From IMG/VR virus record IMGVR_UViG_2974656638_000001, positions 1 through 64,000 of that record: a stretch of DNA of 64,000 bases; one strand, written 5' to 3'. Below, one piece after another: positions 4,411 to 63,048 of this stretch (position 1 is its first letter; every line of letters begins with the position of its first letter). Under the pieces are notes generated by a model that was given only the letters and a program-made list of their open reading frames with translations, did not search any database and was not told where the DNA came from. The position numbers and the translations under genes were made by a program. Source of the DNA: a virus (taxonomy: Duplodnaviria > Caudoviricetes).

Positions 4411-5038
4411 GAACACGAAGACTTTAGAACAAACACTAAATACTGTAGCCGAGGAAAAAGATTATGACTTATTCCTATCAACGTTGGCGGGGGTAGTTAA
4501 ATCACTATACAAAGAGTACCAATTTCTTAGACAAGACCCAGCACCCGAGGATAAAACATCAGGAAACATTTTGATTTTCCAAATTTTCCGAGGAGACCCT
4601 GACGGTTATGCTAAAGATTTTGATACACTGTTTAAAATTGCAGTAGACAGAAATTTAGAGCACAGAAAAATATCCCAAAAATTCTTTGAATGGGTAGAGA
4701 AAGGTAAGTTCTTAGAGTTGGGTGATAACATCGTTATTAGCAGGGATGGTACAGGAGTAAGCTCTATTGTTGAGTCTGTTGAACTTAAAGTTTTTATTAC
4801 TTTTATGACTAAAAGTTATGCCGAAGAACGAGAAGATTTTTTAGCTAAAGAGAAGGAAAAGCAAGAAGAGGCTAAAAAGAAAGAAGAAGAGCGACTAGCT
4901 CTAAAAGAGGAATCGTATAAATCTTTAGGAGAGGCTACAGAAATGCTAAATACTCTCATGGAAGAGCAAGGTGTATCTCCTGAGGAGCTTGCTTTAGCTT
5001 TAGAACAGGGGAAGGAGAGTTATCGTAATGCACGATAA
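4400..5038 (+). CDS. Hypothetical protein
   Basis: GGAGGAG 4384-4390 supports ATG 4400. Confidence 0.75.
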   Translation: MTIENTKTLEQTLNTVAEEKDYDLFLSTLAGVVKSLYKEYQFLRQDPAPEDKTSGNILIFQIFRGDPDGYAKDFDTLFKIAVDRNLEHRKISQKFFEWVEKGKFLELGDNIVISRDGTGVSSIVESVELKVFITFMTKSYAEEREDFLAKEKEKQEEAKKKEEERLALKEESYKSLGEATEMLNTLMEEQGVSPEELALALEQGKESYRNAR

Positions 5039-5408
5039 TGAATTTGAAGTACCTGAGAGTGTTATTAATGCTTCTGCTACACCTTTTGAGGCGCCTGATA
5101 GAACAAAAGATACCTACCAAAGTTCATTAAAGAACTGGTTGGACAGAGTAAAATCAGTCGGAGATGCAGGAATGTCACGAGAGTTTGTTATTCGTATTCC
5201 AGCAAAGGCACTAGAGGAGAACAACCCAGAAGCTACCTTATTTTTAAAACAGTGTAACGAAATAAAAAGAAACCCTAAGTGCAACCTTCCTATTAAAATT
5301 GAAAAAACAGTAGAGAAGTACAAAGACAAGAAACACTTAATGTTAGACTTGGTGTTCACTTATAGTAATAAAACAGATATTGATGCAGTAAATAGTGTAA
5401 TAAAATAA
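5028..5408 (+). CDS. Hypothetical protein
   Basis: AAGGAG RBS; overlaps the upstream gene. Confidence 0.75.
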   Translation: MHDNEFEVPESVINASATPFEAPDRTKDTYQSSLKNWLDRVKSVGDAGMSREFVIRIPAKALEENNPEATLFLKQCNEIKRNPKCNLPIKIEKTVEKYKDKKHLMLDLVFTYSNKTDIDAVNSVIK

Positions 5409-5413
5409 CAAAC

Positions 5414-5467
5414 AGGTTCCTCTTTACGTCTGCTATATTAGATAGTAGAAAACGTAAGGAGGAATTT
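5414..5467 (+). promoter_or_regulatory. Late promoter (TGCTATATTA 5431-5440) inside an RBS-sequestering hairpin upstream of the endolysin
   Basis: 5414-5429 pairs with 5452-5467, covering AAGGAGG; inner stem 5430-5436/5442-5448. Confidence 0.75.
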
Positions 5468-5471
5468 TTAT

Positions 5472-6497
5472 ATGGTAAAATATACCGTAGAGAACAAAAT
5501 TATTGCAGGATTACCTAAAGGTAAACTAAAAGGGGCTAACTTTGTTATTGCTCATGAAACTGCAAATAGCAAGTCTACTATTGACAATGAAGTAAGCTAC
5601 ATGACTAGGAACTGGAAGAACGCATTTGTAACTCACTTTGTAGGTGGCGGAGGTAGAGTCGTTCAGGTTGCTAATGTAAACTATGTTTCTTGGGGAGCAG
5701 GTCAGTATGCTAACTCTTATTCCTATGCGCAGGTAGAGTTGTGCCGTACAAGTAATGCAACTACATTTAAGAAAGACTATGAAGTGTACTGTCAATTACT
5801 AGTAGACCTAGCTAAAAAAGCAGGTATCCCTATTACACTTGACTCTGGTAGTAAAACTAGTGATAAAGGTATTAAATCCCATAAATGGGTTGCTGATAAG
5901 CTAGGAGGAACAACACACCAAGACCCATATGCTTACTTAAGCTCATGGGGTATTAGTAAAGCACAATTTGCTAGTGACTTGGCTAAAGTATCTGGCGGAG
6001 GAAACACAGGAACAGCGCCAGCTAAACCAAGCACACCAGCACCTAAACCAAGCACACCATCTACTAACCTAGACAAACTTGGCTTAGTAGACTACATGAA
6101 CGCTAAGAAAATGGACTCTAGCTACAGTAACAGAGCTAAGTTAGCTAAACAGTATGGTATTGCTAACTATTCAGGAACAGCTAGCCAGAACACTACACTC
6201 CTTAGTAAAATTAAAGGAGGAGCACCTAAACCAAGCACACCAGCACCTAAACCTAGTACATCTACAGCTAAGAAAATTTATTTCCCACCAAATAAAGGAA
6301 ACTGGTCTGTGTATCCAACAAATAAAGCACCCGTTAAGGCTAATGCTATTGGTGCTATTAACCCTACTAAATTCGGAGGATTGACTTACACTATCCAAAA
6401 AGATAGAGGAAACGGTGTATACGAAATCCAAACAGACCAATTCGGCAGAGTTCAAGTCTATGGTGCACCTAGTACAGGAGCAGTTATCAAAAAATAA
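5472..6497 (+). CDS. ply: Endolysin, N-acetylmuramoyl-L-alanine amidase (Ply511/PlyP100 type)
   Basis: Amidase_2 motifs IAHETAN, HFVG, QVELC, SHKW, HQDP; PKPST linkers; C-terminal cell-wall-binding region. Confidence 0.96.
   Translation: MVKYTVENKIIAGLPKGKLKGANFVIAHETANSKSTIDNEVSYMTRNWKNAFVTHFVGGGGRVVQVANVNYVSWGAGQYANSYSYAQVELCRTSNATTFKKDYEVYCQLLVDLAKKAGIPITLDSGSKTSDKGIKSHKWVADKLGGTTHQDPYAYLSSWGISKAQFASDLAKVSGGGNTGTAPAKPSTPAPKPSTPSTNLDKLGLVDYMNAKKMDSSYSNRAKLAKQYGIANYSGTASQNTTLLSKIKGGAPKPSTPAPKPSTSTAKKIYFPPNKGNWSVYPTNKAPVKANAIGAINPTKFGGLTYTIQKDRGNGVYEIQTDQFGRVQVYGAPSTGAVIKK
6022..6256 (+). repeat. Short coding repeats (PKPSTPAPKPST linkers) in ply
   Basis: CTAAACCAAGCACACCAGCACCTAAACC at about 6022-6058 and 6224-6256. 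Confidence 0.8.
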
Positions 6498-6510
6498 ATA
6501 ATGGTAAACT

Positions 6511-6543
6511 AGAGGAGACTTTTATAGTCTCTTCTTTTCTTTT
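6511..6543 (+). terminator. Intrinsic terminator after ply
   Basis: AGAGGAGACT-TTTAT-AGTCTCTTCT plus T tract. Confidence 0.8.
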
Positions 6544-53561: not shown

Positions 53562-53677
53562 AATAAAGAAAAACACTAAGTAGGTCTTTTGTGGTGACAT
53601 ATACATAAGCCTACTTTTAGTGTATTGTGCTATACTAGAGTAGAACGGAAAAACAAAATATGTTTGGAGGAATATCG

Positions 53678-56269
53678 TTGACAATAATAGTAAAAGACAA
53701 CGGAAGTAGAAAACTACCTTTTGAGGAAGACAGACTAAACAGGTACCTAGATAACATAAAAAAAGAGTTTCCTAAGTTAAATATAGAGAGTTATCGAAAA
53801 AAGGCAATACACTATATTTTAAGCAAGGACGAGTATTCTGTAGACGAAATGGTAGACTACCTAATAAGAGAAGCAGAATCTCGGGTAGACGTTACCACAC
53901 CTGAATGGGAGTTTTTTGCTACTAGACTATATTTACAAAGATTGTATAAGAAAGCTAGTAAAAACAGGTTTTACGATGTAATTATGAAGTATGGTTCTTA
54001 CGTGGGTTTGCATGAGAGTCTAGCACAAAGAGGAATATATTCCGTAGATATTTTAGAGAAGTATTCAAGAGAAGAGCTTATGGAAGCTGAAACGTTTATT
54101 GACAGTAGCAAAGACCTTCTCTTTACTTACAATGGTTTGTACCTACTAGCTACTCGCTATCTAGCAACAGATGAGGATAAGAAAGTATTTGAGTTACCAC
54201 AAGAACGATGGTTAACTATTGCTTTATTTTTGATGCAAGATGAAAAAGAAAATAGAATGAAGTTAGTAGAAGAAGCTTATTGGGCGTTAAGTAACTTGTA
54301 TATGACAGTAGCAACCCCCACATTAGCAAATGCAGGTAAAGTAGGCGGGCAACTATCCAGTTGTTTTATAGATACGGTAGATGATAGTTTGCAAGGTATT
54401 TACGATAGCAATACAGATGTTGCTAGAGTTTCTAAGCAAGGCGGAGGCGTAGGAGTCTATATAGGCAATGTAAGGTCGTCAGGAGCACCTATTAGAGGAG
54501 TTCTCGGTGCTAGTGGGGGAACGGTACCTTGGATTAAACAATTAAACAATACGGCTGTTAGTGTAGACCAGCTAGGAGCAAGAAAAGGCGCTATAACTGT
54601 AACGTTAGATGTTTTCCACAAAGATATAGAAGCCTTTCTGGATTTAAGACTAAACAATGGAGACCAACGTTTACGGGCTCACGACATTTTTACTTCTGTT
54701 TCTATTCCTGATTTATTTATGGAAGCTGTAGAGAATAGAGGGGAATGGTATTTATTTGACCCTTACGAGGTTAAGCAGAAAAAAGGTTGGTACCTACAAG
54801 ACTACTATGATAAAGAAAAAGGTAGTGGTTTATTCCGAGAAAAATATGAAGAACTCATTCAAGATGGCACGATTAGTAAGAAGAGAGTGAAAGCTCTTGA
54901 TATGATGAAACGTATCATGATTAGTCAGCTAGAGACAGGAACACCATTCATGTTTTATCGAGATACTGTAAATAGAGCTAACCCCAACTCCCATGCTGGA
55001 ATGATTTATGCTAGTAATTTGTGTTAATTCTATGGCACCTTTGGGTAGCAATACTCATCGAAAACTTTTCTTAAACGGGCATAGCTGAATACGATGAATA
55101 AGCTGGTAAGAGAGCCTAAGTCCTTGAGTGAGGATAGAGGTAATCCCGTGCTAAATTATAATAAAATCTTTATTGTATAAATGCCTAACGACTATCGAAA
55201 AGCTACTTTTTAGTAGAACTTAGTAGAGTACACTCAAGTGAGTGGAAACAGAAAAGACTCCCATGTGGAGTATGATATAGTCTTTTCTTTACAGAAATGT
55301 AAAGCAGTTAGTACACTAACGGGTAGGGAATTAACGACCCTTACTGAAAGCAAGCAAGAAATCGCACAAAATATGTCAGCTACGGTAGTTACAGAGGAAA
55401 TTATAGATGGAGATAAAATTGTTGTAACAAAAGAAGCAGGAGACTTCGTAGTTTGTAACTTGTCTTCTATTAACTTAGGTTCTGTATTTTCCGAAGAAGA
55501 CGTTATCGACCGACTAGTAACCATTCAAGTTAGGATGCTAGACAATGTAATTGAGTTAAACAAACTACCTGTACCACAAGCTCTAATTACTAACCAGAAG
55601 TATAGGGCAGTGGGATTAGGAACTTTTGGGTGGCACCACCTACTAGCTAAAAAAGGTATTCATTGGGACAGTGAAGAGGCTACTAATTTTGCAGATAGCC
55701 TATATGAAAGAATTGCTTTTCACACTATCGAAGCAAGTATGAAACTAGCCGAGGAAAAAGGAGCTTACCCATACTTTAAAGACAGTTCGTGGGATACAGG
55801 GGAGTACTTCTCTAGTAGAAACTATACTAGTGATACTTGGGTTGACCTAGCTAAAAAAGTGAAAGAGAAAGGTATTAGAAATGGTTACTTAATGGCAGTA
55901 GCACCTAATATGTCCACAGCGCAGATAGCAGGCTCTACAGCCTCTATTGACCCTATCTATGACTCTTTCTATTATGAAGAGAAAAAAGACTACAGACGAC
56001 CTGTGATAGCCCCTGAGTTGAACTTGAACACTTACGCTTTCTATAAAAGTGCTTACAAAGTAAACCAGATTCAAAGTGTTAAGCAGAATGGTAAAAGACA
56101 AAGACACATAGACCAAGCTATCAGTTTTAACTTCTATGTACCTAGTGGCATTAAAGCAAGTAAACTACTTGAGTTGCACACTACAGCGTGGAGTGAAGGT
56201 CTAAAAACAACTTACTATGTTCGTTCTAATGACATTGATGTGGAAGAATGTGAGTGGTGCTCTAGCTAA
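53678..56269 (+). CDS. nrdA: Class I ribonucleotide reductase alpha subunit, spliced: join(53678..55024,55355..56269), 753 aa
   Basis: TTG 53678 after GGAGG; ATPTLAN, QLSSCF; splicing restores SNLC-QEI; VCNLSS, TTYY, CEWCSS. Confidence 0.93.
55025..55354 (+). ncRNA. Group I self-splicing intron (IA2-like, 330 nt, no ORF) in nrdA
   Basis: Exon ends TGU 55024; P1 GUGU/GCAC (55035-55038); AAACGGGCATAG, AATCCCGTGCTAAA, AACGACTA, GATATAGTC; terminal G55354. Confidence 0.93.
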
Positions 56270-58247: not shown

Positions 58248-58558
58248 GTGCATTCAGTAGAAGTAGAAAAGAAAGAACAGTTAGCGGACATTGTATCACA
58301 AGACAAGGTTGTATTAAAGTTTTATAAGGATAACTGTAGCCCTTGTAAGATAGTAGGTATGTCTATTGAGGAAGCTAGTAGTAATATAAAAGAGGATATT
58401 ACTATCGCTAATGTTAAGTTAGAAACTTTAGGAGAGGAAGTCTTCTTTGATTTCGGCATCAAAGGCACACCTACACTGTTGTTAGTAGAAAAAGGAATAG
58501 AGAAAAAGAGACATAGTGGGTTTATTTCCCCTGATGACTCCAAGAGTTTGTTAAATAA
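58248..58558 (+). CDS. Thioredoxin-like protein; its natural stop TAA (58556-58558) is out of frame because of an apparent 1-nt deletion near 58537
   Basis: FYKDNCSPC, GTPTL; one added A gives PDELQEFVK*, directly followed by a terminator. Confidence 0.8.
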
Positions 58559-58613
58559 GAGAGGCTTAGGCTTCTCTTTTTTTGTTGACATTTACAAGTT
58601 TATATGGTATAGT
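58557..58613 (+). promoter_or_regulatory. Terminator (58557-58583) plus sigmaA promoter TTGACA-17-(TG)TATAGT (58585-58613)
   Basis: AAGAGAGGC-TTAG-GCTTCTCTT plus T tract; consensus promoter. Confidence 0.8.
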
Positions 58614-58640
58614 AACAGTAACAGAGGGGAGGTAAAAAAA

Positions 58641-58940
58641 ATGACAAAAAAGAATATTAAAATAACGAGTAAGACAGAGGTAAAAAATAGCTCTGTTGAG
58701 GCAGGAGACATCTTCTACATTGAAGGGGTGTCTAAGGGGCTTACTAATTTGTCTGGTTTGTATATAGTGACATTTGATTTTCATGCAACAGAAGAGTCGC
58801 TGTCTAGGTACGCTCTAGTTTCTTTGGAGACAGGGATGTTAAACACCATTTCCATCAACCAGTTTTCTCTAGAAGAAAAAATAGGGTGTATAGTGAAGGT
58901 GAATAATATAGAAATAGTAGCAAATACTAAGGAGGTATAA
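58641..58940 (+). CDS. Hypothetical protein (99 aa)
   Basis: GGGGAGG RBS before ATG 58641; has its own promoter. Confidence 0.78.
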   Translation: MTKKNIKITSKTEVKNSSVEAGDIFYIEGVSKGLTNLSGLYIVTFDFHATEESLSRYALVSLETGMLNTISINQFSLEEKIGCIVKVNNIEIVANTKEV

Positions 58941-59082: not shown

Positions 59083-60270
59083 ATGGCACACTTAATTGAA
59101 AAGCTAAGACTATATAAAAAACCAGAAGAGGTCGTAAGAGGAACATCAGTAAAAGCACAGCATATTTATGTTGCAAATGATGAAGCAAAGTCATTTTCAG
59201 GAGCCGAAAAATGGGCGGGAACGTCTGCCTATACCTTGACAAGTAAGAACGAATTTACAAATGTAACTATTCACTCTCTAGACATTAGAGGAGAGGGAGG
59301 CAGAGCTTACCAAGTTACACTAAATCACGATAATAATACTTATTTATGTGACTTAAGGGAAACTCAATTAATGGAAACTATTCGTAACGTAGGAATTGAG
59401 GCTGGCGGAAAGTTAATTGGAACTTACAGCTTTATTGCTGACGGCTCACAGAAAGTTCTAGTAAGGATAGGTTCAGACGCGTATGCAAAAGCAAGTGAAC
59501 AAGCGGAGACTAAAAATAAGGCAAAGAGAATTCCCAAGAAGGAGCTAGAAGTAGGAGGAGTATACGCACCTAAGGCTACTTATTTAGGAACAAATGACTC
59601 CCTAGACTTATATATAGGGGACTTGTATAGAAATGAAATTGTAGACGATAACCCTTGGTACCGAGGGTACTACGAACGAAGAATAGAATTAGGGAAGCGT
59701 AAGAAGTTCTCTGTAAGCTTAAATGTAGCATTACATGAGGGACAGGTATGTGTTCCAACATACAGAGAAGCTGAAATCATACCTGTATTTCTAACAGACG
59801 ATGGGGTTACTTCACTAAATATTAGCAACCAGCTAGGGCGTTTATCCCCAAGAATGGACTTAAAATCAAGCCCTAATTTCTTTGGAAAGGTAGGGGAGGC
59901 TCCTGAAATTAAAACAACAGCAGAGTTCTTAGAATGTTTAAGACGTGGCTTAGAAGCTCGCATTGAAGCTTTACCTAGTAAAATAGAGGGCAATATTTTA
60001 AAGGGAAACTTAAGGTTACAAAACGTTATCCCTGAAATGGAGACTATACTCAAGTTAATAGGACTCAATACTACGATTGAAAAGCCTAAATACTCCGCTA
60101 GTTTTGTTAACAAAATAAAAAATATAAAATATATAGTTATAGCAGAACGTAACCAAAAAGGGACGTTAACCGCATCGGAAAGTACAGACTTCCATCAGTT
60201 TAGTCGTGCTTTTGATGACTTAATGTCCAATATTTTAGAGGTTATTATAGTAGAGGAGGAAAATAATTGA
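59083..60270 (+). CDS. Hypothetical protein (395 aa), translationally coupled to the PRPS-like gene
   Basis: Long ORF; TTGA overlap at 60267-60270. Confidence 0.8.
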   Translation: MAHLIEKLRLYKKPEEVVRGTSVKAQHIYVANDEAKSFSGAEKWAGTSAYTLTSKNEFTNVTIHSLDIRGEGGRAYQVTLNHDNNTYLCDLRETQLMETIRNVGIEAGGKLIGTYSFIADGSQKVLVRIGSDAYAKASEQAETKNKAKRIPKKELEVGGVYAPKATYLGTNDSLDLYIGDLYRNEIVDDNPWYRGYYERRIELGKRKKFSVSLNVALHEGQVCVPTYREAEIIPVFLTDDGVTSLNISNQLGRLSPRMDLKSSPNFFGKVGEAPEIKTTAEFLECLRRGLEARIEALPSKIEGNILKGNLRLQNVIPEMETILKLIGLNTTIEKPKYSASFVNKIKNIKYIVIAERNQKGTLTASESTDFHQFSRAFDDLMSNILEVIIVEEENN

Positions 60271-61181
60271 CGTTATATATGAATGGTAAAAAAGTACATG
60301 AGAGTACTTTCCCCAATGGGGAGATTAATATCATGCCTGATGAAAATTTATGGGTACTTGAGGAGGAGAAAGCAGAGATTACTTGGCAGTACTCAGGAAA
60401 CGGTGCAGAAGACTTGCTAGCTGTCAGACTACTAGTGAACAGTATAAGAGAGCACAACAAGAAACATAATAGCATTAATTTAACAGTTCTTTATATGCCA
60501 TACAGCAGAATGGATAGACTTCAAGGAAATCAGCCCTTTAGCTTACTAGAGTATTTTAAAATGTTCCCTCAAGTTGACAAACTAGAAATAGTGGAACCTC
60601 ATTCAGACGTTACAGGGAGTATTGCTAGAAAACTTATTGACAGTGGAACTTACTACTCAGAGCGGTTTGCTACAGTAGAGATGCTACCAGAAGTGTTAGC
60701 AGAAGAGTTGTCTAATACTTGGTGGGAACCTGTATTAGTCTATCCTGATAAAGGAGCAAAAGACAGATATGACAAATTAGCAACTGATTCTGATTATTCA
60801 TTCAGAAGAGCTACTGAAAACAGACGAGTACTATTTGGAAATAAAGTACGGGACTTTGATACAGGTAGAATTAAAAGTTTAGAGCTAGTAGGGGAACCAC
60901 CTACTAGAAAAGGATGGACAGCTATTATTGTCGATGATTTAACTTCTTATGGTGGAACTTTTGTAAAAACAGCTACAGAGGCTATAAAGTTAGGAGCAAG
61001 CCGAGTAGTACTACTAGTAGCTCATATGGAAGGTAGCGCCACTAAGGGAGAATTATTTGAATCTATTGATAAGGTGTATACTACGAACAGTATGGAAGCT
61101 AGCTACACACCAGAAGAGCTAAAAGAAGTAGAAAGATATAAAAAACTAGGGTTACTAGACGTAACTAATATTATAAAATAA
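60267..61181 (+). CDS. Ribose-phosphate pyrophosphokinase-like protein; probable ADP-ribose pyrophosphokinase (Adps of NARP1)
   Basis: FPNGE, YMPYSRMDR, EPHS, PDKGA, IVDDLTSYGGTF; adjacent to the NAMPT-like gene. Confidence 0.88.
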   Translation: MTLYMNGKKVHESTFPNGEINIMPDENLWVLEEEKAEITWQYSGNGAEDLLAVRLLVNSIREHNKKHNSINLTVLYMPYSRMDRLQGNQPFSLLEYFKMFPQVDKLEIVEPHSDVTGSIARKLIDSGTYYSERFATVEMLPEVLAEELSNTWWEPVLVYPDKGAKDRYDKLATDSDYSFRRATENRRVLFGNKVRDFDTGRIKSLELVGEPPTRKGWTAIIVDDLTSYGGTFVKTATEAIKLGASRVVLLVAHMEGSATKGELFESIDKVYTTNSMEASYTPEELKEVERYKKLGLLDVTNIIK

Positions 61182-61191
61182 GGAGGAAAAT

Positions 61192-62985
61192 ATGCGTAAA
61201 TTAAATGAAATTTCTATGTTAATGAGTGATTGCTATAAATTTGGTCACATGTCTTTATACCCGAAAGGTATCACACAGGTGTATAGTACACTTGTTCCTC
61301 GGGATAATACTTACTTTTTTGGAGGTCGTACAGATAAAATGGTTGTCTTTGGATACCAGATGTTTGTACAACGTTTCCTGTTAGAACATTTTAATAAAAA
61401 CTTTTTCGAGTTACCTATTGAGACTGTAAAAGAGGACTACCACTATGTAGTTAGTAACGCTTTAGGGGAGAAGAATGCTCGGACAGAACATATCGAAGCA
61501 CTGCACAAGCTAGGATACTTACCTATAAAAGTAAGAGCCCTTCCAGAGGGTACCTTAGTTCCTATGCGTGTACCTGTGTTAACCATTGAAAATACACACC
61601 CTGACTTTGCTTGGTTAACTAATTTCTTAGAAACAGTATTACTATCTCAAACCTTCTTACCTGCAACAGTAGCCACTACTGCTTTAGAAGCTAAGAAAAT
61701 TATGACTAAGTATGGAGAAGAAACTTGTGATAACTTAGACCATATTATGTTCCAAGGTCATGATTTTTCGGAGAGAGGGCAACACTCTAATGAGGCTTCC
61801 TTGTTAGCAGGTATGGGACATTTAGTAAACTTTGCAGGTTCAGATACTATTCAAGCTAGTGTGATGGCTCACAACTACTACAGTGCTGATTTAGAGAAGG
61901 AACTCGTTCTTAAGTCGGTGACAGCATCAGAACACTCCGTTATGCAAAGCTACGGTACAGATGAAGTAGAGACATTCTCAACACTAATAGACAATAACCC
62001 TGATGGTATCTTGTCTCTAGTTAGTGATACGTATGACTATTACGGTGTACTTACAGAAGTTCTTCCAAAACTTAAAGATAAAATTATGAATCGAAATGGT
62101 AAACTAGTAATTAGACCTGATAGTGGAAACCCTGTAGACATTATTGCTGGACGTGACTATATAGAGTTTGGAACTAATTGGTTTAACTATCATATAACTA
62201 AAGAGAACTTAGTAAAAGCAGTAACCACTCGATACGAGCAGTCATGCTCAAACAAACCCTCAATAGGTCAAAGAGTCGATATTGTAGACTACCTAAATCT
62301 ATTTGTAGATAGCGACTATATTTATAATAATGATATTGTTGATAAAGAGAAAAAATTAGTATCAGGGTATTATAAAGTAACATTAAGTGCCGTTTTCCTT
62401 GGTGAAGACCTGTGTAACCCTTATAAAGTAGACAAACTTGAACTAGAAGATTACCAACCAACCCCTGAGGATAAAGGTTCTCTACAACTACTATGGGAAA
62501 CCTTTGGTGGAAGTGTAAATGAGAAAGGGTACAAAGTTTTAGACGAGCATATTGGTTTACTGTACGGGGAGGGTATTGACTTAGAAATGTTAGAGAAGAT
62601 TTTTACTCGTATGGGTGAAAAAGGGTTTGCTTCTAGTAACGTAGTATTTGGTCTTGGTGCTTATATGTACTCCTTCTCTCTTTCCAGAGACAGTTTTGCC
62701 CAAGCAATAAAGAGCCAAATGGTAGTTATTAATGGGGAAGAAAAATTAATCTTTAAGAATCCTAAGACAGATACTAATCATATTAAGAAATCTCTTAAAG
62801 GAAGAGTGTGTGTTACAAAAAAAGAAGGAACATATGAAGTTACAGATGCTTTAACAGCTAAAGAAGAAGCCAACCTTGAAAACTTAAACGAGCTGAATGT
62901 AATTTTTGAAGATGGTAAGTTAGCCTATCAAGACTCCTTCCATACTATTAGAGAGCGTTTAGACAGAGAAGCAAAAAAATATTAG
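61192..62985 (+). CDS. Nicotinamide phosphoribosyltransferase-like protein; probable nicotinamide ADP-ribose transferase (Namat of NARP1)
   Basis: SDCYKFGH, HDFSERG, SEHSVM, VSDTYD, IRPDSG, YGEGI, KNPKTD...KKSLKG. Confidence 0.9.
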   Translation: MRKLNEISMLMSDCYKFGHMSLYPKGITQVYSTLVPRDNTYFFGGRTDKMVVFGYQMFVQRFLLEHFNKNFFELPIETVKEDYHYVVSNALGEKNARTEHIEALHKLGYLPIKVRALPEGTLVPMRVPVLTIENTHPDFAWLTNFLETVLLSQTFLPATVATTALEAKKIMTKYGEETCDNLDHIMFQGHDFSERGQHSNEASLLAGMGHLVNFAGSDTIQASVMAHNYYSADLEKELVLKSVTASEHSVMQSYGTDEVETFSTLIDNNPDGILSLVSDTYDYYGVLTEVLPKLKDKIMNRNGKLVIRPDSGNPVDIIAGRDYIEFGTNWFNYHITKENLVKAVTTRYEQSCSNKPSIGQRVDIVDYLNLFVDSDYIYNNDIVDKEKKLVSGYYKVTLSAVFLGEDLCNPYKVDKLELEDYQPTPEDKGSLQLLWETFGGSVNEKGYKVLDEHIGLLYGEGIDLEMLEKIFTRMGEKGFASSNVVFGLGAYMYSFSLSRDSFAQAIKSQMVVINGEEKLIFKNPKTDTNHIKKSLKGRVCVTKKEGTYEVTDALTAKEEANLENLNELNVIFEDGKLAYQDSFHTIRERLDREAKKY

Positions 62986-62992
62986 AAAAACG

Positions 62993-63048
62993 AAAGAGCC
63001 TTTAGTGGGCTCTTTTTTGTTGACAATTAAGTAAAAGTGTGGTAAGAT
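62993..63048 (+). promoter_or_regulatory. Terminator (62993-63018) plus sigmaA promoter TTGACA-17-(TG)TAAGAT (63020-63048)
   Basis: AAAGAGCCT/GGGCTCTTT hairpin plus T tract; consensus -35. Confidence 0.75.

Follow-up and report, generated by a model that had tools for sequence, protein, structure and literature searches.

A probable two-gene NAD+-reconstitution (NARP1) module in a P100-like phage of Listeria

We analysed a 64,000-nucleotide stretch of viral DNA (the window; positions 1 to 64,000 of IMG/VR record IMGVR_UViG_2974656638_000001, whose full length is 131,384 bp). Toward its end lie two adjacent genes, the first encoding a protein similar to phosphoribosyl pyrophosphate (PRPP) synthetase (Prs) and the second a protein similar to nicotinamide phosphoribosyltransferase (NAMPT or Nampt). 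The pair is very probably a two-gene module of NARP1, a phage pathway that rebuilds nicotinamide adenine dinucleotide (NAD+), with the first gene encoding Adps and the second Namat (Table 1). By sequence, the window belongs to a Pecentumvirus of Listeria, either phage P100 itself or one nearly identical to it. In 33 records of Listeria phages, among them AG20, cka15, List-36 and LMSP-25, the 3.1-kb region holding the pair is present at 95–98% identity, and both proteins are the P100 entries of a published table, identical letter by letter as far as these are printed there.

The two open reading frames (ORFs) are separated by 10 nt (61182–61191). The first begins with TTG, 7 nt downstream of a strong ribosome-binding site (GGAGG), and its start overlaps the stop of the upstream 395-residue ORF (TTGA). 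The second begins with ATG, and its own strong ribosome-binding site (AGGAGG) occupies most of the spacer. The pair closes a predicted five-gene unit that runs from a promoter-like site to a hairpin terminator. The promoter-like site, with 11 of 12 matches and a TG before the −10 element, is the nearest strong candidate upstream, and a terminator hairpin directly precedes it. Promoter-like matches are not enriched in the region (35, vs 33 in shuffled sequence), so the promoter call rests on position and quality and not on statistics. Beyond the Namat stop, a hairpin (62993–63015) with a T-run is followed by a new promoter-like site. In cka15, a 98% identical phage, terminators are annotated at both equivalent places and bracket five genes, encoding proteins of 99, 45 and 344 residues (the last the counterpart of the 395-residue ORF) and then the pair. 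A first-pass annotation of the window had placed two such genes, 10 nt apart, at the end of an operon with a sigma-A promoter; the ORF boundaries are exactly as it gave them, and the promoter-like site, the closing hairpin and the cka15 terminators agree with the operon it described.

Table 1. Features of the predicted five-gene unit and its borders (window coordinates)
Feature	Position	Strand	Remarks
Terminator hairpin	58557..58578		directly 5' of the promoter-like site
Sigma-A-type promoter-like site, predicted	58585..58613	+	heads unit; TTGACA-17-TATAGT
Gene 1 of unit, 99 aa, phrog_9691 region	58641..58940	+	corresponds to cka15 CKA15_147; GGGGAGG before ATG
Gene 2 of unit, 45 aa	58943..59080	+	position mapped from cka15 CKA15_148
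395-aa protein, phrog_12487	59083..60270	+	stop overlaps Adps start
Adps (ADP-ribose pyrophosphokinase, Prs-like), 304 aa, TTG start	60267..61181	+	
Namat (nicotinamide ADP-ribose transferase, Nampt-like), 597 aa	61192..62985	+	
108-aa inserted alpha+beta domain in Namat, residues 321–428	62152..62475	+	
Intrinsic-terminator-like hairpin + T-run	62993..63019	+	ends unit; terminator annotated there in cka15
Promoter-like site	63020..63048		follows the closing hairpin

NARP1 was defined by Osterman et al. (bioRxiv 10.1101/2024.02.11.579819), who reported it in 859 phages. By analogy with the homologous enzymes, the pathway in Listeria would start with the splitting of NAD+ into ADP-ribose (ADPR) and nicotinamide by an NADase of the host's defences (type I Thoeris ThsA, DSR1/2, SIR2-HerA, SEFIR and others). 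Adps would transfer the beta,gamma-pyrophosphate of ATP to the distal ribose of ADP-ribose, giving ADPR-pyrophosphate (ADPR-PP), and Namat would displace the pyrophosphate of ADPR-PP with nicotinamide, yielding NAD+ in one step, so that no adenylyltransferase would be needed. The two genes would be co-transcribed from a host-RNA-polymerase-type unit, closely coupled in translation, and on by ~15 min of infection. In cka15, transcripts of the two genes increase from 5 to 15 min, alongside those of the replication genes (PMC12282133).

The first protein belongs to the fold family of housekeeping Prs (TIGR01251, PF13793/PF14572) and shares with it the catalytic Lys, the Arg, His and Asp acceptor contacts and the DD motif; PHROGs lists it as ribose-phosphate pyrophosphokinase (phrog_619, 1.4e-71). 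Unlike true Prs, the protein scores below every Pfam Prs domain cut-off (13–17 bits vs cut-offs of 25–27). Among the NCBIfam Prs models it scores best on TIGR01251, with 63 bits where the cut-off is 113 (E. coli Prs reaches 423 bits, and the Adps of SPbetaL1, verified biochemically as a producer of ADPR-PP, 106); NF002320 gives 39 bits against a cut-off of 297. It shares 39% identity with SPbetaL1 Adps (E 6e-51), 35% with Fado Adps and 22% with E. coli Prs. We placed it in an 88-row tree of 83 phage proteins (Namat-adjacent Adps-like ORFs on IMG/VR contigs and the enzymes of the verified NARP1 modules of SPbetaL1, Fado, Bas63 and ICP1) and five Prs (the E. coli enzyme plus four others, also true Prs, that score 363–432 bits on TIGR01251). 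In this tree, which comes from a quick run of IQ-TREE and has a small outgroup, these five Prs only, a long branch with support of 100 separates the Prs from all 83 phage proteins. The first protein falls inside a 25-member clade (support 99) together with SPbetaL1 and Fado Adps, both verified, and its sister is the protein of Brochothrix phage A9. This placement is in line with Table S1 of Osterman et al. Thus, in the model and phylogeny comparison that the first-pass annotation had proposed, the protein fails the Prs models and clusters with verified Adps and not with housekeeping Prs.

The residues expected of an Adps are present. The catalytic Lys193 (SPbetaL1 K162, ICP1 K185) is conserved, as are the ADPR-contact residues F15, R81, H112, D161, D223 and D224. 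The contacts defined by the ICP1 Adps structures (PMC13586617), F18, R87, H121, D161, K185, D212 and D213, all have their counterparts here. With TSYGGT, the PP loop follows SPbetaL1 (SSFGGT) in type and fits the pattern DDL(S/T)S(F/Y)GGTF shared with SPbetaL1 and Fado. ICP1 Asp216 is replaced by Ser, likewise in all Firmicute-phage Adps aligned. By alignment, the conserved Lys and acceptor residues are common to Prs too, and alone they are no discriminator. With the first protein as query, no Adps structure was detectable by sequence in the PDB copy searched.

The second protein matches the Pfam domains NAMPT_N and NAPRTase, and PHROGs lists it as nicotinamide phosphoribosyl transferase (phrog_448, 9e-193). 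The NCBIfam Nampt-type equivalog NF006629 accepts it at 494 bits (cut-off 405) and also accepts, at 508 bits, the Nampt of Vibrio phage KVP40, a NARP2 enzyme; routine annotation therefore cannot separate the two functions. Indeed, the first-pass annotation had warned that these genes are easily taken for routine salvage enzymes, and this is how the cka15 paper reads them, as pentose-phosphate and NAD scavenging (PMC12282133). By sequence, the PDB entries it matches best are 9w5x and 9w5w, both crystal structures of Namat (PMC12774641), at 431 bits, with human NAMPT at 220. An AlphaFold2 model built from 54 sequences (predicted local distance difference test score 92, predicted template-modelling score 0.91) is closest to the same two structures, with a target-normalised template-modelling score of 0.94. 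All residues of the Namat catalytic core are conserved (D13, Y15, F192, R195, D218, A245, H248, R308 and D310). The contacts kept, to nicotinamide, ribose and phosphate, include the nicotinamide-binding Asp218 and the catalytic His248, and Asp218 argues for nicotinamide over nicotinate as the substrate.

The published discriminator between ADPR-PP-using and PRPP-using enzymes of this fold is the 'selectivity clamp', in which aromatics occupying positions 3 and 7 of the clamp-helix motif stack on the adenine (PMC12774641). The clamp helix reads GIGSFTYQYN-TRD in SPbetaL1 Namat (Phe392 and Tyr396 at positions 3 and 7), GVGAQTYQRN-TRD in Haemophilus ducreyi NadV (HdNadV; Gln and Arg) and GMGGGLLQQL-DRD in KVP40 Nampt (Gly and Gln). 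In the window Namat it reads GLGAYMYSFSLSRD, with Tyr491 and Phe495 at these positions. Both clamp aromatics are thus retained, unlike in HdNadV or KVP40 Nampt.

Among known systems, the NARP1 modules of the Bacillus phages SPbetaL1 and Fado are the closest. The window pair shares with them gene order, tight coupling, the Firmicute-phage clade, the catalytic Lys of Adps, the catalytic core and aromatic clamp residues of Namat, and an identity of ~46% between the Namats over their common core. The modules of Escherichia phage Bas63 and Vibrio phage ICP1 share the two-gene layout, but Adps identity to them is just 24–26%. NARP2 of KVP40 pairs a homologous Nampt-fold enzyme (34% identity) with an Nmnat, and in this Nampt GGGLLQQL replaces the aromatic clamp. 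A search for relatives with KVP40 Nampt returned two near-identical loci only.

The genome and its relatives fit the same assignment. Of the 79 nearest IMG/VR relatives whose Namat ORF is complete, 76 have a same-strand Adps-like ORF no more than 5 kb away, and two of the remaining three are truncated at the end of a contig; with 76 of 79 paired, the association of Adps with Namat is not due to chance. Osterman et al. (bioRxiv 10.1101/2024.02.11.579819) found a Namat gene nearby in 97% of the Adps clade. Profile searches of the 131,384-bp genome found no match to PF01467 (CTP_transf_like; Nmnat or NadR type) and none to NUDIX, with control genomes positive in 14 of 14 cases, and the lack of a gene for nicotinamide mononucleotide (NMN) adenylyltransferase beside the pair, claimed in the first-pass annotation, thus extends to the whole genome. 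Nor did the genome match isochorismatase PF00857 (PncA), NAD-synthase PF02540 (NadE), the RyR domain (RyDEP accessory) or the Macro domain; here too, controls behaved as expected. The missing PF01467, NUDIX, RyR, PncA and NadE matches exclude NARP2, the NARP3 type with its NadR-type enzyme (PMC13464706), a RyDEP accessory and a nicotinate-type variant. The model scores, the phylogeny against Prs, the clamp comparison with NadV and the missing adenylyltransferase together support the identification of the genes as NARP1 Adps and Namat.

Several observations weigh against this assignment. The pairwise scores of the Adps protein against the verified Gram-negative Adps (Bas63, 58 bits; ICP1, 49) are no closer than the score against E. 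coli Prs (45). HdNadV (PDB 9ke8) reaches 399 bits against the second protein overall (Namat structures, 431) and 139 bits in the C-terminal third, where Namat reaches 129; it has the same fold and the same Gly-Ala start of the clamp helix. HdNadV truly makes NMN and serves in NMN production (PMC6095924), and because it scores nearly as high as Namat, overall similarity is not decisive. It may be a Namat-clade enzyme that has reverted to PRPP, or a near outgroup. The clamp itself departs from the published form, in which the helix follows the consensus GSX-phi-X-phi-X-phi-TRD and the third residue of the clamp loop is Arg, Lys or Tyr (PMC12774641). Where SPbetaL1 Namat has GSFTYQYN-TRD and Arg40, the window protein has GAYMYSFSLSRD, with Ala for Ser, one additional residue and an SRD end, and a loop reading DNTYFF, with Thr in third and Tyr in fourth place. 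The stacking role falls to the fourth loop residue when the third is Lys or Tyr (PMC12774641), and the Tyr of DNTYFF could take that role. Other Adps-linked relatives of Namat also depart from the clamp consensus. The Namat of Brochothrix phage A9 (locus L003, positions 4980–6524), the closest outside Listeria phages at 59% identity, carries Val at clamp position 7, so the clamp is drifting in this lineage. The biochemistry and the rescue experiments, moreover, come from enzymes and phages of other lineages, and the present lineage is read from its sequence.

Two other explanations of the pair bear on these points. In one, the genes boost salvage: the first enzyme would make PRPP from ribose-5-phosphate, the second would make NMN from nicotinamide and PRPP, and the host's NMN deamidase, NadD and NadE would finish NAD+. 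This is the view of the Listeria-phage literature, and it is favoured by the acceptance of the second protein by NF006629, as of KVP40 Nampt, by the near-equal similarity of HdNadV and by the PRPP-dependent NMN synthesis that Namat enzymes retain in vitro (PMC12774641), which also tells against NARP1. We regard it as very improbable, given that the first protein reaches none of the curated Prs cut-offs and falls among verified Adps, away from true Prs, that both clamp aromatics are retained, and that the NMN-making Nampt-type enzymes of phages travel with an Nmnat (NARP2), for which this genome holds no match. The other accepts NARP1 chemistry but assigns it mainly to general NAD+ upkeep during lytic growth, recycling ADP-ribose of any source, and not to escape from a dedicated Listeria defence. 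Every one of the 33 Pecentumvirus records carries the pair, at 95–99% identity; the pair stands among genes of nucleotide metabolism and its expression peaks with the replication genes (PMC12282133); and literature searches for NADase defences in Listeria gave nothing specific, a point that counts against the counter-defence role as well. Yet every system tested (SPbetaL1, Bas63, Fado, ICP1 and P. foliorum) showed rescue from NADase defences, and constitutive counter-defences benefit broad-host-range phages; we consider general upkeep as the main role unlikely. A NARP1 module with a probable counter-defence role, judged from its homologs, is the reading we adopt. From such a module the first-pass annotation went on to suppose NAD-depleting immunity in Listeria hosts.

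The 395-residue protein encoded immediately upstream of Adps has no Pfam or NCBIfam family match. Its full-length relatives occur in Listeria phages only, and relatives of its N-terminal half in a few Bacillus phages; cka15 annotates a shorter, 344-residue version of the gene. In LMTA-94 and one LMTA-34 record the gene is almost wholly deleted, with about the last 54 codons left (residues 332–385 match; records compared, KJ586795.1, NC_047872.1 and KJ668715.1). These phages keep the pair without it, which rules out the 395-residue gene as an obligate third NARP1 component.

Around the pair lie genes of nucleotide metabolism, for ribonucleotide reductase (RNR), flavodoxin and thioredoxin. The large subunit of RNR is split between two ORFs (53660–55027 and 55238–56269), which cover positions 1–212 and 215–523 of the barrel-domain profile, an arrangement consistent with a group I intron. 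Near position 58539, close to the end of the thioredoxin gene, the window has one T fewer than cka15. The thioredoxin ORF (58248–58940) is thereby 230 residues long and reads through the terminator hairpin and the promoter into the frame of the next gene, whereas that of cka15 is 103 residues long and ends before the terminator. The missing T reflects a genuine frameshift or else an error made in sequencing this record.

The window Namat differs from the crystallised SPbetaL1 enzyme by an inserted domain of 108 residues, which lies between the RPDSG strand and helix and the next, KG..LW helix. At this site SPbetaL1 Namat has 11 residues and KVP40 Nampt two, and the A9 Namat has no long insert; HdNadV lacks the domain, judged by its chain length. 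The verified Namat of Bas63 (593 residues) carries a long insert of a different variant at the same site. Among 53 relatives, a sample picked by match to a long query and therefore biased to long forms, the site spans 11–97 residues, and the 108 of the window are the longest. On these alignments, the site after the RPDSG motif in Adps-linked Namats (loci L015–L094 and the window) is an insertion hot spot of 11 to 108 residues.

Most of the long inserts have a common motif, TPHGE ... WNRYDKQYYYID. The Listeria insert gave no significant BLAST match to inserts of this TPHGE type; it aligns in register with the long inserts at GYYKVTL / PYKVD / TPEDKG. The domain is modelled confidently, the prediction being one helix packed on a three-stranded sheet. 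In fold searches, a Foldseek run on the PDB yielded no hit with E under 0.2 and only a cystatin-like topology, a wide VIA-align search gave a best Z of 4.0 with no convincing match, and the ESM Atlas gave no usable match; this lack of a match does not show that the fold is new. An intein is ruled out: the insert has 108 residues, it folds as one helix and three strands within the confident model, and it aligns to the common family of inserts. The Namat structure paper (PMC12774641), searched by word through its main text, makes no mention of the insert, nor does the main text of the other papers searched.

The Namat of the Listeria and Brochothrix phages has a re-cut clamp and, in Listeria phages, the longest insert known. 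These could add a property that the crystallised short form lacks, for instance control by some other molecule derived from ADP-ribose, the use of such a molecule, or the ability to dock onto Adps or the 395-residue protein, and the five-gene unit would then be more than a plain NARP1; we rate this as a slim prospect. Inserted domains are common among Adps-linked Namats, and the Listeria example poses a modest structural question.

The NARP1 assignment of these Listeria-phage genes is very probably right, but it is already in print (Osterman et al. 2024). Supplementary Table 1 of that study (bioRxiv 10.1101/2024.02.11.579819) includes DQ004855_00063 (P100) and the A511 and AG20 genes as Prs/Adps homologs with 'Namat within 10 genes: Yes', and its Supplementary Table 2 gives DQ004855_00064 as an 'Adps-associated' Namat homolog. 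The Listeria-phage literature still describes the pair in terms of pentose-phosphate and NAD scavenging (PMC12282133); what is gained in practice is therefore a corrected annotation rather than a discovery. Phages of the P100/A511 type serve in the biocontrol and detection of Listeria. If the assignment holds, a built-in counter-defence that rebuilds NAD+ would help explain their broad host range, and defences of the NADase type would be predicted to offer Listeria a poor route to resistance against them.

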